From an uncultured virus (IMG/VR IMGVR_UViG_3300043313_000272) (lineage: Duplodnaviria > Heunggongvirae > Uroviricota > Caudoviricetes): a stretch of 20,000 nucleotides of DNA. Shown here piece by piece: positions 2,576-20,000 of the stretch; position 1 is the stretch's first letter; each line of letters begins with the position of its first letter. The stretch lies in IMG/VR virus record IMGVR_UViG_3300043313_000272; one strand, 5' to 3'. The notes under the pieces are model-generated. The model was not told the origin of the DNA, ran no database searches, and worked only from the letters and a program-made list of their open reading frames with translations. Position numbers and translations under genes: made by a program.

Positions 2576-2753
2576 TTCCCACCTCCTCGTACACCTTGAC
2601 CGTCATGTTCATATGCCCAAGCAGCTCGGACAATAACAGATCCGGGTTCTCCAGGTCGGGCTCGTCGAGCGCCTCCTGCAGCCGGCTGGCGGTCCGCTTC
2701 CAGGTGTCTATGTTGCAGTTCAGCTCAACCACGGGTTGGCCGTTGGTGCTCAT
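2544..2753 (-). CDS. hypothetical protein
   Basis: ATGA-coupled; RBS GAGGAGG. Confidence 0.7.
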   Translation of the reverse strand: MSTNGQPVVELNCNIDTWKRTASRLQEALDEPDLENPDLLLSELLGHMNMTVKVYEEVGNGRRRVASAS

Positions 2754-2929
2754 GACGCCTCCTCAACCGAGAGGACCTGCACCTCGTAGGCGGGCACGTC
2801 TGCGTCGGCTGCGTGGTGCAGCTTGGCCGCGCGCCGGGCTGCCGGCACATGATCCTTCTCGATCTCGGTGGTGACCTTCGGGCCCTCCAGATCCTTGGTG
2901 GCCCATTGGGTGGTGACCAGGAACTTCAT
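2750..2929 (-). CDS. hypothetical protein (59 aa, MKFLVTTQWATKDLEGPK...)
   Basis: Manually translated; ATGA overlaps at both ends. Confidence 0.7.
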   Translation of the reverse strand: MKFLVTTQWATKDLEGPKVTTEIEKDHVPAARRAAKLHHAADADVPAYEVQVLSVEEAS

Positions 2930-3147
2930 GCAGGCACCCCCATCGGGGTGACCTCGACGACAACCACGTTGTCCGCGAAGTGCGAGCGGACCTCGTTGAA
3001 GCCGAAGCGGGCGGCTGCGTCGGACACCTTGACGTTGATGTCCAGCACCGCGCCGTCGACTAACACGCCGTCGGTGCTGTCGCCCTGCAACAGCGACACC
3101 TCAGTGCCCCAAGCCTTACGGACCATCACTACGGTGAAGTCGGACAT
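2926..3147 (-). CDS. hypothetical protein
   Basis: First gene downstream of the cassette at 3153-3220. Confidence 0.75.
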   Translation of the reverse strand: MSDFTVVMVRKAWGTEVSLLQGDSTDGVLVDGAVLDINVKVSDAAARFGFNEVRSHFADNVVVVEVTPMGVPA

Positions 3148-3152
3148 TTTGA

Positions 3153-3220
3153 TCTCCCTTGCCAGGTGGATTTTCGATCTAGGACAAACCTATGGGACCA
3201 CCCCGGTGTTGTCAAGAGTT
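3153..3220 (-). promoter_or_regulatory. promoter cassette 1: TTGACA (3210-3215), 17 bp, TAGGTT (3187-3192), box TCCACCTGGCAAGGGAGA
   Basis: Consensus SigA/HrdB-type -35 and -10-like hexamers; repeated six times in the window. Confidence 0.85.
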
Positions 3221-3228
3221 TGGGGAGA

Positions 3229-4158
3229 TTAGAGTCCTTTTCTTCCTAGCCAGACGCGACTTGCCTTCACCAGCTTGCCGGCGGGAGTGAAGATGCTCCA
3301 CTTGCTGCGCGACCTCAGATACTCCTTCACCGCCACGGCGTACTCGACGTCAGCGGCGTCCGCCGGGGTGGCTGGGTCGATCGGCACAGGTGGCAGCGGC
3401 AGCACACGACCGGTCAGGGAGTGGAAGGCGGCGGCGAGCTTGTCGCGACTGATGCCCTCCTGGAATTGGGAGGTTCCGAGGTTCTCGGGCCAGATCACCG
3501 CCCACGCCTCGTCCACGCACTCCTGGAAGCCACGATCGGTGAAGGTGCGCACCTGGCCCCACGTCTTCAGATCCTTGCCGGGGCCGACGCGGTCGGAGTC
3601 GAAGCCGCCGAAGACCACCGAGTGGCCGCCGGCGTCGACGTCGCCGGGGTGGTAGTCAAACGGCAGATTGTTCGGCCAGTCGTGGGACATATGCAGCTCT
3701 TGCACGGTGAACCCGACCCACAGCGCGCCGAAGATCGAGATCGCCGCCTCGACTTCCTCCAGGTTCTTGTGGTCGACCTTGGCGAAGGCGATCGGGAACA
3801 CCCCGTCCGTCCCGCCATTCTTGATCAGGTAGTCGAGCAGGAGGTGGATGTACATCCCCTCGTCTTGCCCATTGTCGAAGTCCGGATTCTGGGTCCGGTA
3901 GATCGCCAGGACTTCGTCGAGGGTGAAGTAGCGTTCCGCGCCGACCAGCCGGGACATGAGGCGCCGGAGGTCGGCGTAAGTGACCGCGACGCAGTCGCCC
4001 CACCGGTCGTTGCCGAGCATCTTCCAGCCGGCGATGTTCAGGTGGTGCGCCTCGGGTGGATGGTCCGGGACGGTGCCGGAGAGGATCGAGCGGAGTCGCA
4101 GCGCCGGCTTGTCCAGCGGCGGCTTCTTCCCCAGCTTCAGTCCAAGTTCCCAGCTCAC
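3229..4158 (-). CDS. papain-like (C1-related) cysteine peptidase
   Basis: MLGNDRWGDCV (catalytic Cys), GGHSVVFGGFD (His), KTWG. Confidence 0.7.
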   Translation of the reverse strand: MSWELGLKLGKKPPLDKPALRLRSILSGTVPDHPPEAHHLNIAGWKMLGNDRWGDCVAVTYADLRRLMSRLVGAERYFTLDEVLAIYRTQNPDFDNGQDEGMYIHLLLDYLIKNGGTDGVFPIAFAKVDHKNLEEVEAAISIFGALWVGFTVQELHMSHDWPNNLPFDYHPGDVDAGGHSVVFGGFDSDRVGPGKDLKTWGQVRTFTDRGFQECVDEAWAVIWPENLGTSQFQEGISRDKLAAAFHSLTGRVLPLPPVPIDPATPADAADVEYAVAVKEYLRSRSKWSIFTPAGKLVKASRVWLGRKGL

Positions 4159-8556: not shown

Positions 8557-9621
8557 CTATGTTTCGCAGACGACGCCGTCGCCGTCTCGGTCGCGGTACC
8601 AGTCGTACTCGGGGTCCCGGCCCTTCTTGTACGGGCCGTAGCCGTTCGCGTTGGCCTCATAGCAGTAGTCGAAGCGCGGGTCCGTCCGGCGGTGCGCCCG
8701 GGGCGGCACATAGCCAGGGCAGCCCTTCGTCTTCCAGTTGCTCTCGACACAGCGGGGCCGCTTCTGCACCTTCGGTTCACCGATCGGCTTCGGCTTCGGC
8801 CAATTGAACGCGGTCGCCTTGTCGGGTGACCAGGACTGGCCGTCACAGTCGTCGGTGTCGAGGATCGTCAGGAGCATGGTGCGCTCCTTGCTCGTCACCG
8901 GGATGTCGTACCGGTGTTTGATGTGAGCCACACGGGCCGCGAAGAAGCAGGCGTCCTGCTTGTCGTCCGGGCGCCAGCGGTCGATCGTCTTGTCGGACTT
9001 CCCCTGGTTCGTCGCAGAGTCAACCGCCTCCAGGTTCTCCGGGTCGTTGGCGAACTTCTCACGGTTGGCCTGGGTCTCGTCGTCCATCACCTGCCAGGCG
9101 TTGTGGAGCGACACGACGTGGTCGATCTCCACCTTCCCGTCGCCACGCTCATAGGTGAACGTGTGCGGGCTGGCGTAGCTGTACTCGTCGTCCCGGATCT
9201 TCGCCTTCGCCATCACGCAGCCGTGAGTGCCGGGCTTGGTGTGCCTTTTCACCGAGTCGCGGCGCAGCACATCATTGCGGGTGTCGCAGCCGTTGTGATC
9301 GACGTCCTTCCAGGCTTGGCCGTACGCCGACCTCTTGTAGCCCGTGATGCGGGAGTCGTCGACGTCGAGCGCCAGCGCGATCCCGAACGCTGATTTGGGG
9401 TCAACCGTTTGGCTCGGCGTGGCCGATGCCTGCGCCTTCGACGGGGTAGAGCTAGGCGCCGGCGCTGAGGTCGAGCGCGCCTTGTCGGCGGCATCCGATC
9501 CGCGCCAGAAGTCGCCGGTTGCCATGGACAGGTTGGTGCTGAGCATCGAGAAGCCCAACACCACCCCGATGATGATCACTACTTTGTGGCGGCTCAACGG
9601 CCCCCGAGGTTTCTTGCTCAC
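8557..9621 (-). CDS. exported DUF1524/HNH-type nuclease with C-terminal Excalibur Ca-binding domain
   Basis: N-terminal TM and Ser/Pro linker; DVDHNGCDTRNDVLRRD, IDHVVSLHNAW, FANDPENLEAVD..NQGKSDK...WRP; C-terminal FDYCYEANANGYGPY...YRDRDGDGVVCE; GTG start after box. Confidence 0.85.
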   Translation of the reverse strand: MSKKPRGPLSRHKVVIIIGVVLGFSMLSTNLSMATGDFWRGSDAADKARSTSAPAPSSTPSKAQASATPSQTVDPKSAFGIALALDVDDSRITGYKRSAYGQAWKDVDHNGCDTRNDVLRRDSVKRHTKPGTHGCVMAKAKIRDDEYSYASPHTFTYERGDGKVEIDHVVSLHNAWQVMDDETQANREKFANDPENLEAVDSATNQGKSDKTIDRWRPDDKQDACFFAARVAHIKHRYDIPVTSKERTMLLTILDTDDCDGQSWSPDKATAFNWPKPKPIGEPKVQKRPRCVESNWKTKGCPGYVPPRAHRRTDPRFDYCYEANANGYGPYKKGRDPEYDWYRDRDGDGVVCET

Positions 9622-9624
9622 TAG

Positions 9625-9642
9625 ATCTCCTTTGCCAGGTGT
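9625..9642 (-). promoter_or_regulatory. start-associated box ACACCTGGCAAAGGAGA (box-only copy)
   Basis: Motif match directly upstream of the GTG at 9621. Confidence 0.75.
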
Positions 9643-9674
9643 TTGTTTCATGAATCATGAACCTTGAAACTAAG

Positions 9675-11021: not shown

Positions 11022-11821
11022 CAGTGGCTGTCTACCCAGGTCTGGGCGGCATCCGGGGTGTTGGCGTACAGGTAGTCCACCCCGCGATCCTCGGCGGTCT
11101 GGTAGTTCGCTGAGCCGTCGAAGTCGTAGGTGGCCACATCCTTCCCAGCAGCCGTGTACGCCGCTGCGGTGGTGGCGTCGAGCGTGGCGCCGGACTGGAC
11201 GAACACGTCGATGTAGGCCGCTTCGCTGGCCGGGTTCATGTCGCAGTTGCAGGCCAGCCCGATCAGCGGGAAGCCCTCGCCGTCAGCTTCGGCCAACGTG
11301 GCGCGGTCGAAGCCGTTCCACAGGACCTGACTCTTCGACACCCCAGCATCGGAGAGCGCGGTGTTGACCGCTGCCCATTGGGTGGAGGTCGGGTTCACCT
11401 TCGACTCCAGCGACACCCGGGCGTTCGGGCCGGCTGCCTTCACCGAGAGCATGAACTGGAACAGCGTCTGCCCCTGCTGCTTGTTATCGGCCAGACAGCT
11501 GAGCGCGGTCGGGGTGCTCACCGAGGAGATGGCCTGGGTGCAATTGAACAGGGCCAGGGTCGAGTCGTGGAGGATGTACGGCACCCCGGTGGAGGTGAAC
11601 CGGATGTCGCCGTCCAGGAACGTGTGGCCGTGCGCCACCGACCTGATGCACTGGAGCGCGGTGTTCTCGACATAGCTGGAGCCGTCGACGTTGCACCGGT
11701 GTGAGATGACCGTCATCGGCTGATCGGTCGCCTGTGCGGATTGGATGTTGCCGCCCACCATGATGGCGGCTGCTGCGGCTGCTCCGACTGCTGCGAACGC
11801 GCGGCGAAGAATTCTGTGCAT
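11021..11821 (-). CDS. secreted glycerophosphodiester phosphodiesterase (GDPD)-family protein
   Basis: ISHR...ENT...LDGDIRFTSTGVPYILHDSTL...LESK matches HRG/ENT/ExDV..TxDG..HD/EIK; signal peptide with RR and AQA. Confidence 0.8.
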   Translation of the reverse strand: MHRILRRAFAAVGAAAAAAIMVGGNIQSAQATDQPMTVISHRCNVDGSSYVENTALQCIRSVAHGHTFLDGDIRFTSTGVPYILHDSTLALFNCTQAISSVSTPTALSCLADNKQQGQTLFQFMLSVKAAGPNARVSLESKVNPTSTQWAAVNTALSDAGVSKSQVLWNGFDRATLAEADGEGFPLIGLACNCDMNPASEAAYIDVFVQSGATLDATTAAAYTAAGKDVATYDFDGSANYQTAEDRGVDYLYANTPDAAQTWVDSH

Positions 11822-11856
11822 TCCCCCGAGACCCTTCCGTTATGAGTTGTGGCCTG

Positions 11857-11886
11857 AGCCTCCACCGTCCCGGGGGGACTGTCAAG
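11857..11886 (-). promoter_or_regulatory. possible weaker promoter TTGACA-17-GAGGCT for the GDPD gene
   Basis: TGTCAA at 11880-11885 in a short intergenic gap; -10 is imperfect. Confidence 0.35.
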
Positions 11887-12804
11887 CTAGACGCACGCCC
11901 GAGTGTCGGCGAACCTGTCACCCTTCGGGGTCACGTACCGGTAGTCGTAGCTCGTCGCGTGCAGATCGAACCGGAGCACCGCCGAGACGTCGTTGAATCG
12001 CTTGGTCCCGTCGATCCTGCTGTCGAAGGCTCGCAGCGTGTGATGGTTCTTCCCGCCACCGCCGGACTCGAACTCCTTGATCCCGTTGCTGGCCCGTACG
12101 CCGCTCGGGGTGAGCTTCTCCCAGATCGCTGAGACGTGGCCGTGTCCATTCACGATCACATCGGCACGGGCGGCGTACAGGGCATCCCATAAAGGGCGGA
12201 CAGCAGCGTCCCCGGAGTGTTCGACGGAGCTGGCGTACAGCGGGTGATGCCACACCGCCATGACGCACTTGTGAGGGTCGGCGGCCTGATCGCGGCGGAG
12301 ATAGTCGGCCTGCGCGGCACACGACACGATCGTGCAATTGGAATCCAGAATGTAGATCTTCCACGCACCACGCTCGAACCCGCCGTACAGCTTCTGGGTG
12401 GAGCTCTTGCCCCAGTAGTCGCGGAAACCCTGAGCGTTGGCCGTCCGGTACTCATGGTTCCCGACAGCCGGCTTGGTGATGCTCTTGAACCGGCCCCACG
12501 TCTTGTCGTACGCCTGCTGGAACTCGGGCAGCGAGCCGTTCTCGTACTGGAGGTCACCAGCTGCGACCACGGTCGTCGGATGCTGCGCTTCCACCAGGTC
12601 GGCGGTCACATCGTCCTCGCAGATGTCCACCGTGTTGCTGGGTGAGCAGGCGATGTCGCCGGCAACCACCAGCACCGGGTCTGTCGTCAGCTTTTGCGCT
12701 TGCGCCGGGTGGTGGGTGCAGGCGGTGGCGGCAATAAGTAGGGCGGCAATTCCGGCGACTGCGGCGGGTCGCCACCGTCGTCCTCTCTTGGGTACAGCCG
12801 CCAC
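11887..12804 (-). CDS. exported calcineurin-like metallophosphoesterase (acid/alkaline phosphatase-like)
   Basis: AGDIAC, AGDLQYENG, GNHEY, WHHP and NGHGH motifs; signal or lipoprotein-like N-terminus; start uncertain. Confidence 0.85.
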   Translation of the reverse strand: MAAVPKRGRRWRPAAVAGIAALLIAATACTHHPAQAQKLTTDPVLVVAGDIACSPSNTVDICEDDVTADLVEAQHPTTVVAAGDLQYENGSLPEFQQAYDKTWGRFKSITKPAVGNHEYRTANAQGFRDYWGKSSTQKLYGGFERGAWKIYILDSNCTIVSCAAQADYLRRDQAADPHKCVMAVWHHPLYASSVEHSGDAAVRPLWDALYAARADVIVNGHGHVSAIWEKLTPSGVRASNGIKEFESGGGGKNHHTLRAFDSRIDGTKRFNDVSAVLRFDLHATSYDYRYVTPKGDRFADTRACV

Positions 12805-12890
12805 AGCACGCCGATGATGACGCCGAACAGTAGCAGGAGGATGAACACCCATCCAGCTCCCCCGAAGATGGTCCACAGAAACTCCTTCAC
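12687..12890 (-). CDS. small membrane protein with Pro-rich tail
   Basis: GTGA-coupled; TM segment WVFILLLLFGVIIGVLW. Confidence 0.6.
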   Translation of the reverse strand: MKEFLWTIFGGAGWVFILLLLFGVIIGVLWRLYPREDDGGDPPQSPELPPYLLPPPPAPTTRRKRKS

Positions 12891-13159
12891 TCGATCACAT
12901 CCGCCGTCATCGTCGGCAACGGCTCCGGTCCTACGTACTGCTTGCAGGTGCATCGGGACGGGGCCCGCACACCGTTGATCCACCTGACCCACTCATGATG
13001 GCAGCCCTTGCCGTCGTGGAATGAGAAGTGGTGGGTGCAGCCACAGATCGCCGCCGGTCCGGGCTCGATCTGTGGCTGCGCTTTGCGGCGCATGGCGAGC
13101 GAGCGCACGATCCAGCCGATCAGCATGCCCAGCAGCAGGATCGCAGCTCCCTCAATCAC
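12887..13159 (-). CDS. TM-anchored Cys/His-rich protein
   Basis: TM segment then CGCTHH..H...CH...CTCKQYVGPEP. Confidence 0.75.
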   Translation of the reverse strand: MIEGAAILLLGMLIGWIVRSLAMRRKAQPQIEPGPAAICGCTHHFSFHDGKGCHHEWVRWINGVRAPSRCTCKQYVGPEPLPTMTADVIE

Positions 13160-13272
13160 TTCTTGCCGCCGATCTTCGTGTTGACGCTCTTGACCGCCTT
13201 GTCCATCCGCGCGCTGACCTTCGCGCTGTTCTTGCCCACGCGGGAGAGGCTGCTGCCCTTGTCTTTACCCAT
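13156..13272 (-). CDS. 38-aa Lys-rich peptide (MGKDKGSSLSRVGKNSAK...)
   Basis: RBS GGGGAGGTGA; GTGA-coupled downstream; manually translated. Confidence 0.65.
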   Translation of the reverse strand: MGKDKGSSLSRVGKNSAKVSARMDKAVKSVNTKIGGKK

Positions 13273-13492
13273 CTCGATCACCTCCCCTCGGGGGTGTGAT
13301 GACCTCGAACGGTTCGAACCCGGACAGGTCGTCCCACGGGTCCGGGTACGGCTCGCCGATCACGATGATCATCGGCTCCTCAACCCGATGCTCGCCGACA
13401 TACTCCGATCGGAACATCGGGGCTCGGGCACGCATCGCCGCCACCGCATCCTCCAGGCTGTCGACGAAGTCCTCATAGGGGTGATCGGACAC
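13265..13492 (-). CDS. hypothetical protein
   Basis: RBS GGAAGG before GTG. Confidence 0.65.
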   Translation of the reverse strand: MSDHPYEDFVDSLEDAVAAMRARAPMFRSEYVGEHRVEEPMIIVIGEPYPDPWDDLSGFEPFEVITPPRGGDRDG

Positions 13493-13676
13493 GTGCCTTC
13501 CTCTCCTGTACGTGGCGGCTGGCGGCGTGCACCACGGTCCCCAGGTTGACGGTCTTCTCGTAATCCGGACCGTTGCTGACGTGTGCGGCGACGGTGTTGC
13601 AGTCCTCGTCGTGCAAGGCCACAGCCACGCCGCCGACCACCTCCTGCACGTGCACGTGGTATTGACTCCAGCTCAT
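13473..13676 (-). CDS. hypothetical protein
   Basis: ATGA-coupled; RBS GAGGAGG. Confidence 0.65.
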   Translation of the reverse strand: MSWSQYHVHVQEVVGGVAVALHDEDCNTVAAHVSNGPDYEKTVNLGTVVHAASRHVQERKARVRSPL

Positions 13677-13969
13677 GTGTCCTCCTCGTCGTCGAGAACG
13701 ATGTTGACCTTCACCCGGGACGGATCCGCTACGTCGAGGGCAAGCGCGATCACATCCTTGGCGTAGCTCTCAACCTGGTCGAACCGTTCCGCCTGCGTAG
13801 TGATGTCCAGCTCGGGCACGTCGATCACCCACCACTTCATGTCCCGGCCCACATCGACCCGGTACACCTTGCCGGGCGGCATCCGCTCCTCCAGGTGCGC
13901 CAGCTTCATGTCGTCGGGCAGCAGCCTCAGGATCAGCCACATCCGCAGCTGGTTCAGCAGCTCTCTCAT
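13673..13969 (-). CDS. HicB-like antitoxin-domain protein
   Basis: YRVDVGRDMKWWVIDVPELDITTQAERFDQVESYAKDVIALALDV matches the actinobacterial HicB pattern. Confidence 0.7.
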   Translation of the reverse strand: MRELLNQLRMWLILRLLPDDMKLAHLEERMPPGKVYRVDVGRDMKWWVIDVPELDITTQAERFDQVESYAKDVIALALDVADPSRVKVNIVLDDEEDT

Positions 13970-14517
13970 GTTCCGTCGCCCTCCCATTGGTTCTCGGTTT
14001 CCTGGAGCGCGTCCGGCTGCATCACAATCCTGAGCACCCCTTCCTTGCGGTCAATGTCTCCGACGAACGTGATCCGGTTCAGACCCTGCACCTGGGCGGC
14101 GGACTCGAAGACGAACGTGCCGTAGCCCAACCAACGACCCACCACCGTCTTCTCCACCGTGATGTCGAGGATCCTCATCAGCGGCACCGATGCCCGCTTA
14201 GTGGCGAGCACGCCGTACACCCGGAAGATGCGCTGGTTGGTGATCACAAACCGGTCGCGATACTCAGCCAGCCACCGCCAGATCGCCTCGAACATGCAGA
14301 TGGATCCGAGGATCATGCACGGCCAGAACAGCCAGCTGCCCCAGTCGGTGGCTTGCAGCGCGAGCCCGGACACGATGACCATCACACCTGACAGGACACG
14401 CACCGCGGGCCAGGCGATCGCCGGCCAATGCTTATGCACCTCCAGCACCTTCGTTTCGCCGGCGGCTTCGAGGATCTGCTTGTCGACGTGCGGATCCAAC
14501 CAGCCGAACCCTCTCAC
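13966..14517 (-). CDS. membrane protein with bacterial PH domain (bPH_2/YdbS-like)
   Basis: Two TM segments then FVITNQRI...GVL....SVPL.RILDITV.KT..GRWLGYGT..FESA. Confidence 0.85.
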   Translation of the reverse strand: MRGFGWLDPHVDKQILEAAGETKVLEVHKHWPAIAWPAVRVLSGVMVIVSGLALQATDWGSWLFWPCMILGSICMFEAIWRWLAEYRDRFVITNQRIFRVYGVLATKRASVPLMRILDITVEKTVVGRWLGYGTFVFESAAQVQGLNRITFVGDIDRKEGVLRIVMQPDALQETENQWEGDGT

Positions 14518-14663
14518 GACAGCCGGCCCTCAATCACGAGCACCAGCACGGTGAGGACCAGGAAGTAGGTGGCTGGGTCGAAGCTGCCGAAAACCAGGGA
14601 TCCGATCGACAGCAGCAGGAACACCACCGAGAGCACCCGGGCCACCATGCATGCGAAGCTCAC
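14514..14663 (-). CDS. 49-aa two-TM membrane peptide (MSFACMVARVLSVVFLLLSIG...)
   Basis: Manually translated; GTGA overlaps at both ends. Confidence 0.7.
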   Translation of the reverse strand: MSFACMVARVLSVVFLLLSIGSLVFGSFDPATYFLVLTVLVLVIEGRLS

Positions 14664-15079
14664 GGGAAGCGGCTTTTAAGTGCGGCGATCGCGTCGAGGA
14701 AGTCCGAGTCCATGCCGCGCAGATCATCCATCATCGAGCCGCATCGGTCCATCACCTCGGCCCACGCCTCGCGGGACAGCTGCCACTGATCCCGTTTCTT
14801 GTACACCTCGTCGATCGGCAGCGTGGTCACCCAGTCGATGACCGCAGCATGGGCGATCACCGTCAGGTAGGCGTCGAGCCGCTCATCGTCGGACGGCTCG
14901 CGGTAGGACCATTCCAGGTGCTCGGGGTTGACCGCCTCAGCTGTGCCGAGCGCCTTGAACCGGACGAACACGTAGGTGTCGTTCGCCGAGCTGATCCTGC
15001 CGTCCTGCTTGCCGCGGATCAGGTCTTTGTATACGACGGCGCGGCCAGGGAACAGGCGGGCATCCTTCAAGGTGATCAT
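14660..15079 (-). CDS. hypothetical protein (SH3-like N-terminus)
   Basis: ATGA-coupled; GRAVVY...GRISSANDTYVFVRF. Confidence 0.75.
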   Translation of the reverse strand: MITLKDARLFPGRAVVYKDLIRGKQDGRISSANDTYVFVRFKALGTAEAVNPEHLEWSYREPSDDERLDAYLTVIAHAAVIDWVTTLPIDEVYKKRDQWQLSREAWAEVMDRCGSMMDDLRGMDSDFLDAIAALKSRFP

Positions 15080-15531
15080 GTGGGCCTCCGGTTCCTGCGC
15101 GTGCTCATGGTGGGGGCGACGTACTTCTCAGCGAAGTCGGCCACCCAGCCGTGCAGCGAGCCCTCGGTGCGCAGCTCGACACGGACCTCACCTCCGCCTG
15201 CTCGTATCACCTTGGCCTGCAGGATGACGATCACCTCATCGCCAGGCTGGAAGGCGAACACCTCACGGCGCTCGTGGACGTTCTCCAGATACTTCGGCTG
15301 GAGGTCCTGCGGCGGGGGAAGCTCATTTTTGTACGGCTCACCGGTGGCGTCCCGGAGCACGACCGTGATGCCCGAGTTGTCCTCGGGCGGGTCGCCGTCG
15401 GCGTTAGCACCGTAGTGACCGCACGCCGGGCAGTACATCCGGAACGTCTGCTCAGTCGGATCCCACGCCCTCTTCCACTCATGATCGCCGCTTTCCGACC
15501 GCGGGCAGACCGGCTCCTCTTCTGCGCTCAT
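15076..15531 (-). CDS. hypothetical protein with N-terminal Zn-ribbon-like motif
   Basis: CP...H...YCPACGH; ATGA-coupled. Confidence 0.7.
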   Translation of the reverse strand: MSAEEEPVCPRSESGDHEWKRAWDPTEQTFRMYCPACGHYGANADGDPPEDNSGITVVLRDATGEPYKNELPPPQDLQPKYLENVHERREVFAFQPGDEVIVILQAKVIRAGGGEVRVELRTEGSLHGWVADFAEKYVAPTMSTRRNRRPT

Positions 15532-15692
15532 GCCATCGACTCCTTGATTGCTGCCAGCCTCTTGTCGCGGCGGGCTCGGACACGCTTCGTCCGGCGGTCC
15601 TGGTGGATGCCGGCGGCGTTGCTCCGGCGCAGCTCCTGCAGCCGCTGACCCTCCTTGCGGATCGGGCGGGCATGCTCAGTGTGTGCCATCAT
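15528..15692 (-). CDS. 54-aa Arg-rich protein (MMAHTEHARPIRKEGQRLQELRRSNAAGIHQDRRTKR...)
   Basis: Manually translated; first gene after cassette 4; ELRRSNAAG motif recalled from actinophage small proteins. Confidence 0.7.
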   Translation of the reverse strand: MMAHTEHARPIRKEGQRLQELRRSNAAGIHQDRRTKRVRARRDKRLAAIKESMA

Positions 15693-15695
15693 CTT

Positions 15696-15762
15696 TCCCC
15701 TTTGCCAGGTGGGTTGCTTTCAAGATCAAACCTAGTGGGCCACCCGCACCGTGTCAAGAGTT
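15696..15762 (-). promoter_or_regulatory. promoter cassette 4: TTGACA (15752-15757), 17 bp, TAGGTT (15729-15734), box CCCACCTGGCAAAGGGGA
   Basis: Repeat of the cassette consensus. Confidence 0.85.
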
Positions 15763-15794
15763 TGGTGAGGGGTTGCACGTTTTTCGACCAAGAA

Positions 15795-16053
15795 TGAGGG
15801 CCGCTGGATAGCAGCTGGCGGACGCCCGGTCCGGCTTCAGCTGCCCGAGACGCAGGCGGGATCATCGCGCTGGGGGGCGCTCCTCCACCTTCGATCCGGC
15901 ATCAGCACAGGCACATGGAATGTTTACGCGGGTCTCTCATGTTCAAACGCCCGCTACCGACGCCCGTGCCCTATCTCCGTTCGCTAGTCGGCAACGATGC
16001 AGCCCTGAGTACAAGGCTTACGGCGGTGACGTTGACGCAACCAGCGGCCCACA
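15795..16053 (-). ncRNA. candidate large structured ncRNA (~255 nt), family unknown
   Basis: Gap with no plausible CDS, closed by the 10-bp perfect stem GGGCCGCTGG/CCAGCGGCCC; at least six internal stems; G-U pairs consistent with the minus strand. Confidence 0.6.
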
Positions 16054-16054
16054 A

Positions 16055-16483
16055 CTATTCCCCGATGAATCCCCCATCCTGGATCAGCGGGTCGAGCATG
16101 ATGACCGAGCGGTGCTGCACCCTCTCGCTGGCGCGCAGACAGCCGTCCATGTCTGGTCTGACCTGTTGCAGCGCTGACTGTATCCGATCGAACTCGTCCG
16201 GGTGGCACCACAGCTGCAAATCCTGGTCGTTTTCCGATAACAGGTAGCCGGCGGCTCGCAGGTTGGCGATCTGGCCGAGCATCACCCGAATCTCCTCGAT
16301 CTGACCATCCTCGACCAGCGCCTCGGGGATGGTGGTGGGTGCGATCAGGCCCTTGTCGTCGGGCTCGCCGTGGCACCAGCAGACACAGTCGAACCGTCCC
16401 TCATGCTGCGGAATGTTGTACGCCTCGGTACCCCAGCCGATGCACAGCTCATGCTTGGCCTCACCGCAATCGATCGTGATCAT
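16055..16483 (-). CDS. hypothetical protein with N-terminal C..H..C...CxCxCH motif
   Basis: ATGA-coupled; RBS GAGGTGA. Confidence 0.7.
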   Translation of the reverse strand: MITIDCGEAKHELCIGWGTEAYNIPQHEGRFDCVCWCHGEPDDKGLIAPTTIPEALVEDGQIEEIRVMLGQIANLRAAGYLLSENDQDLQLWCHPDEFDRIQSALQQVRPDMDGCLRASERVQHRSVIMLDPLIQDGGFIGE

Positions 16484-16695
16484 GGTGCCTTCACCTCTTC
16501 CTGCCAGTAGCCGGCGGCCTCACCCTTCTTCAGGTGCGCCTCGTACGCATCCTTCAACTCCTGCCACCTCTTCGCCTCACGTCGCGCCAGCTGGATCGCA
16601 CCACGACGGACAGCGCCGGCGGTCTTGTGGCCGGCTCGGTTCCACTCATCGAACAGCCGCGTGCCTTCCTCCAAATAGTCGGCGTACTCGCTCAT
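16480..16695 (-). CDS. hypothetical helical protein
   Basis: ATGA-coupled. Confidence 0.7.
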   Translation of the reverse strand: MSEYADYLEEGTRLFDEWNRAGHKTAGAVRRGAIQLARREAKRWQELKDAYEAHLKKGEAAGYWQEEVKAP

Positions 16696-16910
16696 GACGA
16701 CTGGCCAAGGTGGATCTGGTCGTGGAGCTGCTGCCGAGCGGCGGCGATGATCCGGCCTTTCGGCGAGCTGGGATTAGGGCAATCGTGACCTATCACCGTG
16801 TCCATCACCTGGTCGAGCGTTGCGCCCTCGATCAGCGGCCAGCTGGTGCCGCAGGGCATGTGCACCAGACACGGCTTTCCCTCCCAGTAGATGATCTTGT
16901 ACTGTCTCAC
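16692..16910 (-). CDS. hypothetical protein
   Basis: GTGA-coupled. Confidence 0.7.
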   Translation of the reverse strand: MRQYKIIYWEGKPCLVHMPCGTSWPLIEGATLDQVMDTVIGHDCPNPSSPKGRIIAAARQQLHDQIHLGQSS

Positions 16911-17083
16911 TCCGTCACCCCGAACATGGCTCGCAGGTTGTCGTCGTCCAGCTCAGCCTGCAGCGGCACCAAGCCGGGGCGGGGATCTAGGTCGAACAGC
17001 AGCACCATCAGGTACCTGCTCAGTGTGGTCTCGATGGTGAGCGTGATCGGCTCAGTCCACGACCCAACCATTGCCTCACTCAT
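16907..17083 (-). CDS. hypothetical protein (MSEAMVGSWTEPITL...)
   Basis: RBS AAGGAG before ATG. Confidence 0.65.
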   Translation of the reverse strand: MSEAMVGSWTEPITLTIETTLSRYLMVLLFDLDPRPGLVPLQAELDDDNLRAMFGVTE

Positions 17084-17324
17084 CGTCTCTCCTTCTGCTG
17101 TCGCCGAACCCGTCCTGGGTCGAGTTGCTGTCATTCCTGGTGATGTGGACGCCGAGGAGGGCAGGCATCACAGCCAACCCGACCATCGCGGCACCGACGA
17201 TCTGCATCCGCCACTGACCTGACAGCCAGCTGGTCGGCATCTCAGGTCCGACCAGGAACATCAGGCCGTGGCCGGCGAGGATCGCGGCGAGCAGTATCCA
17301 CCCGACGTCGATGTGGATCTTCAC
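17076..17324 (-). CDS. two-TM membrane protein
   Basis: GTGA-coupled; RBS GGAGG. Confidence 0.7.
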   Translation of the reverse strand: MKIHIDVGWILLAAILAGHGLMFLVGPEMPTSWLSGQWRMQIVGAAMVGLAVMPALLGVHITRNDSNSTQDGFGDSRRRDDE

Positions 17325-17419
17325 GGCTGCCAACCTCCTCGGACGGCGAACGCACCGACGACGATCGGGGCCAACGCCAGGACCCAGATGACGATCCACA
17401 AGACCGCTCGGCCAGTCAC
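17321..17419 (-). CDS. 32-aa single-TM peptide (MTGRAVLWIVIWVLALAPIVVGAFAVRGGWQP)
   Basis: Manually translated; GTGA overlaps at both ends. Confidence 0.7.
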   Translation of the reverse strand: MTGRAVLWIVIWVLALAPIVVGAFAVRGGWQP

Positions 17420-17574
17420 CGTCGACCAGCCTCTACCAGCGGCTTGAGCAGGAAGGGCATCAGCAGCATGAGCGCACCTACCCAGATGTCACCCATCGCA
17501 TAGTTCCCTGCTCCGACCACGCCGGCGGCGATGATCATCACCAGCAGCGCACGGTCGAGCGCCTTGGAGATCAC
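17416..17574 (-). CDS. 52-aa two-TM peptide
   Basis: GTGA-coupled; RBS AAGGAGG. Confidence 0.7.
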   Translation of the reverse strand: MISKALDRALLVMIIAAGVVGAGNYAMGDIWVGALMLLMPFLLKPLVEAGRR

Positions 17575-17744
17575 CGGTCCTCCTTGTGTTTGGGGCAGAT
17601 GTCGCCCTTCTCCAGTGACCAGCGCCAGTCGTACTGCATCCGGGCGATCGCTCGGGCTCGGTGGATGTCCTGGTGCTCGTCGAAGTGGAGCAGCGAGTTG
17701 CATTCCGAATGATCGCAGACCAGCTCCCACACCAGGGCGATCAC
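17571..17744 (-). CDS. small Cys/His protein (CDHSEC...DICPKH)
   Basis: GTGA-coupled; zinc-finger-like pattern. Confidence 0.7.
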   Translation of the reverse strand: MIALVWELVCDHSECNSLLHFDEHQDIHRARAIARMQYDWRWSLEKGDICPKHKEDR

Positions 17745-18046
17745 TTCGGCAGCACCCGGTGCGGGCGTCCGTCGCCGACCTTGTTTCCGTGGGCGTCCTG
17801 GTCGTACTCCATCACGTTGTAGTCGGGGTCCTTCTTGCCGAGCAGGCCCTTCCAAATCCATTCCCTGGTCTGCACCGCATCCAACACTCGGGGCGCAGCG
17901 TTGGCGGTGATCCGGCGGGTTTGGGTGCCGAGCTTCCGCTTCACCTTGCCGCGGAACTTCTTCCAGCGGGCTCGACCTGCGATGCACACCAGCGCAGTCA
18001 CCAGCAGGGTGACCACGTTCGACAGGATCAGCACCGCCCAGTTCAT
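17741..18046 (-). CDS. TM-anchored basic protein
   Basis: ATGA-coupled; N-terminal TM segment. Confidence 0.7.
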   Translation of the reverse strand: MNWAVLILSNVVTLLVTALVCIAGRARWKKFRGKVKRKLGTQTRRITANAAPRVLDAVQTREWIWKGLLGKKDPDYNVMEYDQDAHGNKVGDGRPHRVLPK

Positions 18047-18174
18047 TGGATCCATGACACCCATCCCCAAACCAGCAGGCACAGGATGATCAGCTTGATC
18101 GCATCGCCGGCGTACCGGGCGCGGCGCACGTACCGCTGCATCTCCAAATGCCAGCGGACCTCGTCCTCGTTCAT
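18043..18174 (-). CDS. 43-aa peptide with C-terminal TM helix
   Basis: ATGA-coupled; RBS GGAGG. Confidence 0.65.
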   Translation of the reverse strand: MNEDEVRWHLEMQRYVRRARYAGDAIKLIILCLLVWGWVSWIQ

Positions 18175-18272
18175 TTCGCCTCCAGATAGCCGATCAGTTG
18201 GTACAGCACGAACGACAGCTCCAGCAGGTTCACCAGCACCAGAGTCAAAATGATCTTGGTCAGGATCTTCAT
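18171..18272 (-). CDS. 33-aa single-TM peptide (MKILTKIILTLVLVNLLELSFVLYQLIGYLEAK)
   Basis: Manually translated; ATGA overlaps at both ends. Confidence 0.7.
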   Translation of the reverse strand: MKILTKIILTLVLVNLLELSFVLYQLIGYLEAK

Positions 18273-18511
18273 GCCACCTGCTCCCATTCGCTGTCGTCGA
18301 CCTGCACGTACTCGCCGGTCTCGTCCTGCTTCCACACCGACAGCACCTGGGTACGCCGGCCCTGCTTGGTCTGGTAGTCAACCACCTGCCGGACGGCCTG
18401 CTGCGGAGTCGGACCTTTGCCGAAGCTAAACCACTTCCGGTTCTGCCGCGGGTTGTCCGCCAACGTCTTGCACCACACCTTGAACTCACAGCCTGAGATC
18501 CGGTAGCTCAT
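18269..18511 (-). CDS. hypothetical protein (MSYRISGCEFKVWCK...)
   Basis: ATGA-coupled; RBS AGAGGTG. Confidence 0.7.
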   Translation of the reverse strand: MSYRISGCEFKVWCKTLADNPRQNRKWFSFGKGPTPQQAVRQVVDYQTKQGRRTQVLSVWKQDETGEYVQVDDSEWEQVA

Positions 18512-18663
18512 CGCTGCACCTCTTTCGGGCTGAGCGCCTTCGCAACCACCGACACCACGGCGCCGGCGACACAGATCCAAGTCAATGTGCTGTGCGGGTC
18601 CACGATCAGCAGCACCGCTGCCAAGGCCACCGCCACGATTTGAATAAGCCAACGAGCCATCAT
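18508..18663 (-). CDS. 51-aa two-TM peptide (MMARWLIQIVAVALAAVLLIVDP...)
   Basis: Manually translated; first gene after cassette 5. Confidence 0.7.
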   Translation of the reverse strand: MMARWLIQIVAVALAAVLLIVDPHSTLTWICVAGAVVSVVAKALSPKEVQR

Positions 18664-18667
18664 CGAG

Positions 18668-18729
18668 TCTCCTTGCCAGGATTTGATCTTGAATCAATCC
18701 TATCGGAGCACCACCCGTTGTCAAGAGTT
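18668..18729 (-). promoter_or_regulatory. promoter cassette 5: TTGACA (18719-18724), 16 bp, TAGGAT (18697-18702), shortened box TCCTGGCAAGGAGA
   Basis: Repeat of the cassette consensus. Confidence 0.85.
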
Positions 18730-18730
18730 T

Positions 18731-18922
18731 TCAGCCGGAACGTCCCCCAGCAAGGTTGTGAACATAGCTGGCCGTCACCTTAAACTCGGCAGCCAGCTGC
18801 GCAGCTGGCTCGCCGTCCTGGTAGCGGCGGATGATGTCCTCCCTCTGCCTTGCGGTGAGCTTCTTGCTTCTCTTGGTGTACGCCTTCCCCCAGTTATCGC
18901 TAGGGAAGCCGGGGGCTGTCAT
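18731..18922 (-). CDS. helix-turn-helix DNA-binding protein
   Basis: KLTARQREDIIRRYQDGEPAAQLAAEFKVTASYVHNL is a resolvase/homeodomain-like HTH; ATGA-coupled. Confidence 0.8.
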   Translation of the reverse strand: MTAPGFPSDNWGKAYTKRSKKLTARQREDIIRRYQDGEPAAQLAAEFKVTASYVHNLAGGRSG

Positions 18923-19338
18923 CGGTTCGCCGGCAGCGAGCAGCGCCACACCCAGAAGTCGACCTGGGTATCGACACCACCGCCAGCCGTCCAGTAGTCG
19001 TGATGGAAGAACCACACACCACCCAGCCGCAGCTCGCCAGCATCGGAGAACGTCTCACCCGGCACACCAGCATGGAGCGAGCCGGAGAACGACACCGCGC
19101 CGTCCTCACCCATATGCCACGAGCCACCGTCAGACGTCTGGATCGAATAGATCGCCGGACCCTCAGCGTCAGCCGGCCAATCCCACACGTGGCTCACTCG
19201 GCGCTCAACACCATCAGCGAACACGACCCAGTCACCGACACCAGGCTTGATCCTCCTGAGCACACCAGCAGCTCGACGGGCCTTGATCTGCTCATCCCGC
19301 TCATCTAGCTCGATTGTGCTGTGCATTGTGGTTTCCAT
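18919..19338 (-). CDS. hypothetical protein (PGVGDWV...SFSGSL...VWFFHHD motifs)
   Basis: RBS AAGGGGA before the ATG at 19338. Confidence 0.75.
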   Translation of the reverse strand: METTMHSTIELDERDEQIKARRAAGVLRRIKPGVGDWVVFADGVERRVSHVWDWPADAEGPAIYSIQTSDGGSWHMGEDGAVSFSGSLHAGVPGETFSDAGELRLGGVWFFHHDYWTAGGGVDTQVDFWVWRCSLPANR

Positions 19339-19379
19339 CGTCTTCCCCTTCTGGGTTCGGTTTTGTTGCTTCGGGTTAC

Positions 19380-19597
19380 CAGTGGACCGGGCATGATTCG
19401 CACATGCCTTCGACTCGGGGTGGCCGGTTCCTCTTGGCGGTCCAGGTGGGTGGCTCTCACGTATTCGTTGGGGACGAGAGCCACCCTGTAAGGAGTGAGG
19501 GTCAGTGTTTGCCTTCACCTCCTTTCGGGGTGAGTTGGGTCCGGGCTTGGAGCCTGTAGGGACTCGGTTTGAGTTGGCCGGCTCCGTTACCGGTGGC
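19380..19597 (-). ncRNA. candidate structured RNA or leader, including a tRNA-like minihelix
   Basis: Consecutive stems including an 11-bp perfect inverted repeat, GNRA loops (GTAA, GAAA) and a T-loop-like TGCGAAT. Confidence 0.45.
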
Positions 19598-19816
19598 TTA
19601 TTTGGCCTGGATGTTCGTCAGGCTGGCGAGGCGGGCGACGCCGCCGTAGCCGTTGAGCATGATCGAGATGCAGTCACCGTCTTGGAGGGCCGGGTCCTGG
19701 TACAGCTCGACGGTCGTTCCGGGGCGAGCGTTGCTGCTGTCCCAGTGGTAGAACTGCCGGGGTCCGACCTTCACGGTCTCCGTCAGGACTGCTGTGTGGG
19801 TCCAACGAGCTGTCAT
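19598..19816 (-). CDS. hypothetical protein
   Basis: First gene after cassette 6. Confidence 0.75.
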   Translation of the reverse strand: MTARWTHTAVLTETVKVGPRQFYHWDSSNARPGTTVELYQDPALQDGDCISIMLNGYGGVARLASLTNIQAK

Positions 19817-19822
19817 TTCATT

Positions 19823-19888
19823 TCCCCTTGCCAGGTGGATTTTGCTTATGAGACAAACCTAGCGCACCGCACCCGGTTGTCAAGAGTT
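19823..19888 (-). promoter_or_regulatory. promoter cassette 6: TTGACA (19878-19883), 16 bp, TAGGTT (19856-19861), box TCCACCTGGCAAGGGGA
   Basis: Repeat of the cassette consensus. Confidence 0.85.
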
Positions 19889-20000
19889 TGTGTGACATTC
19901 GCGGGAAAAGTTTTCAGGCGATTTTCCCCCCCGGGTGCTTCCCCTAACGCGCGCGCGGGCGTCCAAGGCCCGGCCCGCTGTCACGCAACAATATGGCGTA

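Follow-up and report, generated by a model that had tools for sequence, protein, structure and literature searches.

A candidate discrete non-coding RNA of ~240-260 nt at the 3' end of a leftward operon in an uncultured soil phage

A gap between two minus-strand genes of an uncultured soil phage, analyzed within a 20,000-nt stretch of its DNA (the window), may give rise to a non-coding RNA of ~240-260 nt that is discrete and abundant and derives from the 3' end of the upstream operon. We give this reading an even chance, and within it the RNA is most likely a stable tail of the upstream mRNA. The core of the RNA was delimited by RNA-library contigs at 15801-16041 and is presumably encoded on the minus strand. 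An initial annotation, made from the DNA letters alone, had proposed a discrete processed RNA with an elaborate multi-domain fold at 15795-16053. The first part of this interpretation gained real but indirect support, since contigs near the proposed size and ends were found, but the proposed role as a ribozyme, RNA polymerase decoy or anti-defence RNA is unsupported. The elaborate multi-domain fold is not supported either, and the 3'-end reading does not need it.

The window had a GC content of 64%, and its minus strand carried 33 of the 39 open reading frames (ORFs) passing a GC3 filter; the six on the plus strand were short (46-104 aa). Most gene products were without a family. The family matches that were obtained point to an actinobacteriophage-like virus. 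A 107-aa protein matched phrog_14658, and a tblastn search with it returned 32 phage records (15 Gordonia, 7 Pseudomonas, 2 each of Rhodococcus, Nocardia and Microbacterium, and 4 others). Further family matches comprised HicB-like, bPH_2 and metallophosphoesterase proteins, as well as one protein with both GmrSD_C and Excalibur domains. The gap itself (15693-16054, 362 nt) lies between the minus-strand genes 16055-16483 and 15528-15692. Its lower part is made up of a promoter (15729-15757) and a leader, and the remaining ~260 nt (15795-16054) were unexplained. The upstream gene (16055-16483, minus strand, GC3 0.82) ends in a stop codon at 16055-16057, 5 nt ahead of the closing stem of the proposed RNA, and encodes a 142-aa protein that had no match in Pfam or PHROG. 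The homologue search with this protein returned only the protein itself, present on six contigs, the longest of which had 72,934 bases. On the other side, the first gene of the next cassette (15528-15692, minus strand, GC3 0.82) encodes a 54-aa protein without a family, in which 16 of the 54 residues are Arg or Lys. Small, arginine-rich and encoded first in what would be an early operon, the protein is reminiscent of RNA-binding antiterminators such as lambda N. The stretch thus begins after a stop codon and ends before the next minus-strand promoter, as the initial annotation had described, and the accompanying claim, which excludes a role as 5' leader of the following cassette, is supported.

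The gap encodes no protein. Its GC content by codon position was flat in all six frames (0.58-0.63), compared with a GC3 of 0.78-0.93 in the genes, and the two longest frames had no Pfam match at E<=1. An AUG at 15865 opens a 58-codon frame, which was judged not to be coding-like because its GC3 was only 0.59. The description of the stretch as non-coding therefore holds, as no frame carried a coding signal, and a protein-coding gene or gene remnant was rejected on the flat GC in six frames together with the lack of a Pfam match.

Part of the region 15600-16200 was contained in 24 public runs, 14 of which were soil metatranscriptomes, and four of these 14 (X3, X4, X15 and X17) were compared with the whole window. 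Run X15 contained a stand-alone contig covering 15801-16039 (239 nt, depth 7.3) and run X17 a stand-alone contig covering 15801-16041 (241 nt, depth 6.49), each with 0 mismatches. A discrete transcript, the lack of which the initial annotation had named as refuting, is thus suggested by contigs in two runs. These runs are filed under different studies, which may belong to one sampling campaign. Taken together, the contigs provide a weak-to-moderate hint of a discrete RNA species with these ends; ends shared between two studies count as a weak hint. The element contig was the deepest among the eight listed X15 pieces (the others had depths of 2.1-4.5), contig depth being a quantity that does not rank genes; in X17 the remaining exact phage pieces were two 151-nt contigs at depth 2. 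A word share of 0.37 was common to the RNA runs X15-X18, of which X15 and X17 were examined as contigs, and by our own arithmetic (211 of 571 words) this share matches a contig of ~240 nt. The DNA runs X1 and X2 contained the entire 601-nt stretch, and a DNA contig (L003) crossed both ends. In X3, the deepest run, a single contig (15685-16145, depth 13.3) passed straight through both borders; this means that longer forms or read-through occur and that the RNA is not in every case discrete. The RNA evidence consists of assembled contigs rather than reads, and these give no strand, true ends or level. Because the runs were chosen for containing the stretch, cover over the element is partly a product of selection, and RNA libraries can also include DNA. 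Run X4 also had a contig over the element, outside the pieces listed with a depth. Parts of the window with scant or no cover in the RNA runs (e.g., X4 bins 11340-12006 and 18677-19343) were left out as evidence.

The 15801 end common to the two short contigs lies 10 nt beyond the base of a GC-rich interrupted hairpin on the minus strand (GCAGCUG..CGGAC/GUCCG..CAGCUGC, 15811-15844). This hairpin had a pair probability of 0.99 and is likely the terminator and 3' stabiliser. A terminator scan found a site here on the minus strand, in which the 3' arm of the closing stem is paired locally (15815-15800) and followed by a T-rich tail; directly after the hairpin 15811-15844 a U-rich tail is absent. 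The position of the element likewise agrees with an RNA derived from a 3'UTR. On the presumed strand it follows directly on the stop codon at 16055-16057, no TTGACA-N15-18-TAGGTT promoter was found between 15758 and 16483, and the contigs end just past the hairpin. The hexamer AATAGT at 16054-16059 could conceivably act as a weak, -10-only promoter. In the window as a whole there were five exact TTGACA-N16/17-TAGGTT promoters, all on the minus strand, vs. 0.00 expected. One of them is the promoter of the next cassette (TTGACA-N17-TAGGTT, 15729-15757, minus strand), and a sixth promoter, with TAGGAT, lies at 18697-18725. In GTDB genomes the promoter pattern gave seven single matches, spread over unrelated phyla, and by our own estimate chance alone would give roughly as many.

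A conserved leader follows each of the six promoters. Its motif, CCUGGCAA (mostly as CACCUGGCAA), was found by a motif scan in ten minus-strand copies (301, 2235, 3166, 7071, 8068, 9639, 10035, 15709, 18680 and 19835), each directly before a Shine-Dalgarno sequence and start codon, and 6 of the 10 copies follow a TTGACA-N16/17-TAGGTT-type promoter. The start-associated sequences of Cluster K mycobacteriophages resemble this motif. RNA contigs stopped at the same aligned position of the leader at 3158 (X3 and X4), 7063 (X4) and 18671 (X4), a position that directly follows CCUGGCAA and precedes the Shine-Dalgarno sequence. Measured from the start that the -10 hexamer predicts, the stops lie 19-22 nt inward. 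This common stop could be a conserved cleavage site or reflect a constant loss of ~20 nt from 5' ends in the libraries. If ~20 nt of 5' ends are lost, the 5' end of the element would lie at ~16050-16063, where the stop codon is, and the RNA would include the 5' arm of the closing stem.

In the reading of the element as the tail of an mRNA, the gap would be the untranslated 3' end of a leftward operon that runs from the promoter at ~18697-18725 through small genes to 16055. A 1776-nt contig in X4, from 16896 to 18671, fits an operon starting near 18697. Transcription would stop at the GC-rich hairpin 15811-15844, or the RNA would be trimmed to it, leaving a 3' end near 15801, and an endonuclease cut would release the last 240-260 nt. 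Candidate sites for the cut are the sole AU-rich stretch (GAAUAGUUGU), close to the stop codon, and the interior of the 10-17-bp closing helix. As this helix reaches ~17 bp, a nuclease specific for double strands might conceivably act on it; a cleavage motif was not found. The released piece, shielded by its terminal hairpins, would then outlive the mRNA and build up as a discrete RNA, and the hairpin would also insulate the strong promoter 50 nt downstream. We infer the origin by processing, the stabilising role of the hairpins and the minus strand, the last from the way the genes are oriented, from where the hairpin lies and from the plus strand having no promoter-like site.

The eight stems of the initial annotation all pair as written on the minus strand (58 of 58 positions, seven of them G-U). 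The closing (bracket) stem joins a 5' arm, GGGCCGCUGG (16041-16050), at 10 of 10 positions to a 3' arm, CCAGCGGCCC (15798-15807), which is followed by UCAUUCUU. Its pair probability was 0.98 when both arms were present in the folded RNA, and when 15790-16063 was folded the closing helix grew to ~17 bp with bulges, taking in the flanking GGGAA/UUCUU. The 5' arm sits just outside the RNA contigs. The Boltzmann ensemble favored only four elements: the bracket, the hairpin 15811-15844, a hairpin AGCCUUG/CAGGGCU at 16001-16018 (7 of 7 positions pair; pair probability 0.95) and a hairpin GGAUCG/UGAUCC at 15859-15897 (6 of 6; 0.64). The last of these encloses the Shine-Dalgarno-like GGUGGAGGAG as well as six C in a row. 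The central region (15898-16000) showed competing pairings and no well-defined fold, and its minimum free energy (MFE) structure used a different long imperfect helix instead of stems P2 and P3 of the initial annotation. GCGGG/CCCGC was minor in the ensemble, with a pair probability of 0.33, and GCAUCG/UGAUGC (0.01) and UUGCCGAC/GUCGGUAG (0.00) were displaced by the competing helix. The 9-bp pairing put forward as a pseudoknot reached 0.26 as an ordinary helix and, like GCGGG/CCCGC, was minor. The frequency of the MFE structure in the ensemble was 0.0001-0.0008.

Folding energies were compared with 200 dinucleotide shuffles each and, in answer to a check proposed in the initial annotation, lay at chance level on both strands. 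The MFE z-score of 15795-16053 was -1.12 on the minus strand, where 27 of the 200 shuffles folded at least as well, and -0.66 on the plus strand. For the contig-defined RNA (15801-16041, minus strand) it was +0.32, and for 15790-16050 (minus strand) -1.12. Among 790 sliding 253-nt windows of the minus strand, the one starting at 15801 ranked 325th by GC-corrected MFE. The multi-domain fold was thereby not borne out, its folding energy being no better than that of shuffles and its central stems having pair probabilities of <=0.01. The 10-bp bracket pairs in full, but such repeats occur at the rate of shuffled sequence: perfect 10-mer inverted repeats 100-400 nt apart gave 20 matches in the window (~10 distinct pairs), against 10.8 +/- 4.7 (maximum 22) in 100 shuffles. 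The bracket pattern with a gap of 218-248 nt was found at seven IMG/VR loci (five distinct), none of them similar to the element. The G-U pairs on the minus strand (A-C on plus) had been read as a sign of selection at the RNA level; this reasoning is circular, since G-U pairs had been permitted in the search for stems, which was made on the minus strand. As these fold and frequency checks illustrate, stems found by hand in DNA of 64% GC are on their own no evidence of structure.

These results bear most directly on the proposal of a functional structured RNA, closed by the bracket, excised and acting in trans as a decoy, anti-defence RNA or ribozyme, which we consider rather unlikely. The span of the discrete contigs is almost exactly that between the two arms of the bracket, the bracket is strongly predicted (0.98) and extends to ~17 bp, the ends pair with each other, as is seen in many stable RNAs, and a hairpin displays the Shine-Dalgarno-like GGUGGAGGAG with its six-C run. 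Against this, the folding energy is at chance and unremarkable among the 790 windows, brackets of this kind are as frequent as chance predicts, and the central domain is ill-defined, as indicated by the MFE frequency of 0.0001-0.0008 and the pair probability of <=0.01 for P2 and P3. There was also no Rfam match inside the element at E<=10 and no homologue in the collections searched. Complementarity to other minus-strand RNA of the window did not exceed 15 nt including G-U, and the conserved leaders were not among the long pairings, both without a shuffle baseline. A more specific version, in which the ~250-nt piece represents a new class of phage RNA without an Rfam relative, is released from an early operon's 3' end by a cut in the closing helix and acts in trans in a soil actinobacterium (e.g., as a decoy for ribosomes or a host protein via its Shine-Dalgarno-like and C-rich loops), appears distinctly unlikely.

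The lack of a thermodynamic or comparative signal would also suit an ordinary spacer that holds a terminator alone, with the matching contig ends arising from low-coverage assembly noise or DNA carry-over. The longer contig in X3 and the choice of runs by the stretch, which biases cover, agree with such a spacer. However, the two runs agree exactly at 15801 and within 2 nt at the other end, four runs have an equal word share, and 260 nt before a terminator is long for a region packed this densely, in which the other promoters lie 13-30 nt after the previous gene. On balance we regard the spacer as a rather improbable account.

It is quite improbable that the element is a shared or mobile DNA segment of ~240 bp, at the borders of which assembly graphs break because of varied flanks and for which depths are summed. 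Such a segment would account for the 10-bp terminal inverted repeats, the identical contig borders in two runs, the scarcity of other exact phage pieces in X17 and the word share of 0.38 in X14, a run guessed to be DNA, which is near the 0.37 of the RNA runs. But only one DNA context was found, the 23-mer matches being to the same phage with one chance match, and there was no second copy in the window or in two related IMG/VR records (G001 and G002). The contigs omit one arm of the inverted repeat, the arms show no target-site duplication and the flanks do not repeat. Further, X3 assembles through both borders, and the absence of a graph branch there argues against a repeated or mobile segment. 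A miniature inverted-repeat mobile element was rejected, as the repeats are present but occur in a single copy and context with no flank duplication. Very unlikely, finally, is a plus-strand RNA antisense to the operon and starting near 15801: the contigs give no strand and an AAGAAT hexamer lies at 15790-15795, 5-6 nt before 15801, but neither strand gave a promoter-like site in the promoter scan, the plus strand near 16041 lacks a terminator-like hairpin followed by a T-rich tail, nearly all ORFs with a coding signal and all five exact promoters are on the minus strand, and the plus-strand fold is unexceptional (z = -0.66).

Searches for known families and relatives covered the window as well as the element. 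Rfam 15 (4227 models) gave 0 matches in the whole window at gathering thresholds, and at E<=10 the region 15650-16150 gave three chance-level snoRNA or lncRNA fragments, none inside 15795-16053. The RNA polymerase-binding RNAs 6S and Ms1 and the large motifs raiA, GOLLD and ROOL, which are associated with phages, were presumably present in the copy of Rfam 15 that was searched; 6S, Ms1 and raiA are named in the initial annotation. ARAGORN found 0 tRNA and 0 tmRNA in the window, in agreement with the reported absence of their hallmarks. The homologue search that had been advised was negative in phages, plasmids, IMG/VR, JGI metagenome contigs and GTDB genomes. Using blastn, 15500-16300 and 12001-20000 matched nothing among phage records and had one unrelated match among plasmids, to a metallophosphoesterase. 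An exact 23-mer of the element occurred 0 times in IMG/VR and 0 times in GTDB genomes. Among JGI metagenome contigs (241 million records) it retrieved the same phage (L003) and one other contig (L004), in which it matched by chance within a coding region rich in Pro. L003 was 99.98% identical to the window over 6023 nt, and the single difference, at 13620, lies outside the element. The related IMG/VR records, which match just the promoter and leader, were G001, with 93% identity over 2592-3821, and G002, which is identical with the window's right end; they cover parts of the genome other than the element. The 142-aa, 151-aa and 113-aa flanking proteins had no relative in IMG/VR. A 183-aa bPH_2 protein had four relatives there (42-49% identity), which have that gene alone in common and are not syntenic. 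With moderate confidence, we class the element among the phage non-coding RNAs from intergenic regions or 3' ends that have no known function; it lies outside any Rfam family.

The closest published case appears to be an intergenic RNA of the phages D29 and StarStuff, which the element resembles. PMC5712189 describes an RNA peak on the bottom strand, among leftward early genes, between genes 63 and 64 of D29 and in the 68-69 intergenic region of StarStuff, that is higher than the flanking genes and has an unknown function, and it also describes an abundant right-end Pleft RNA in L5, D29 and StarStuff. The likeness lies in a non-coding stretch among leftward genes of an actinobacteriophage-like genome, with RNA more prominent than its flanks. 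The evidence there reportedly came from strand-specific infection time courses and Northern blots, and here it comes from assembled metatranscriptome contigs. The element also lacks sequence similarity to any record in the phage collection, D29 included. The current annotation of the D29 record leaves 9 bp between genes 63 and 64.

A second likeness is to the 3'UTR-derived sRNAs of enterobacteria such as CpxQ and SroC, which start at or after the stop codon, use the terminator hairpin of the parent mRNA and accumulate above the parent. These sRNAs are mostly 50-150 nt, Hfq-dependent and equipped with known seed regions. The element would share with them its start at or after the stop codon, the terminator hairpin common to it and the parent mRNA, and accumulation above the parent, but is larger, at ~240-260 nt. 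The likeness to the RNase III sites of T7 early genes is looser. Each of those sites consists of one hairpin, ~50-60 nt long, and separates mRNAs. Here too an intergenic helix lies in a presumed early transcript and cleavage would leave stabilising structure at the RNA ends, but the long-range helix would enclose ~230 nt and release a non-coding piece. The element further falls in the size class of 6S, Ms1, raiA, GOLLD and ROOL (180-300 nt or more) and has paired ends like them; unlike 6S, a rod with a central bubble, its predicted fold is a multi-branch loop, and it has no Rfam match. If the RNA is real, an uncultured soil phage adds to the few abundant intergenic RNAs reported for actinobacteriophages, and no cultured host is needed to reveal such RNAs, as public assemblies of soil metatranscriptomes can do so. 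At present its value is that of a lead rather than a discovery, consisting of one sequence for which no relatives were found and which offers no functional clue.

Other features of the window were noted in passing. The initial annotation had called the gap the largest non-coding gap in the window, which is doubtful because 18730-19597 is also without an ORF of GC3 >0.71. This region of ~870 nt has a lower GC content (0.61) and could be either another long non-coding stretch or a gene whose composition is atypical; RNA contigs from a promoter at 19856 stop at 19321 (X3) and 19328 (X4). At 13673-14517 (minus strand), a HicB-like small protein (phrog_8245) adjoins the bPH_2 membrane protein, the sole gene near the element with relatives in IMG/VR. 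The 151-aa protein (15076-15531, minus strand) had one relative (P0003, 229 aa, 79% identity), in which an N-terminal Cys-rich segment (CPxxxxGxHxW...CPACG) is tandemly duplicated. A 364-aa protein encoded at 8557-9651 (minus strand) combines a GmrSD_C nuclease domain with a C-terminal Excalibur calcium-binding domain.
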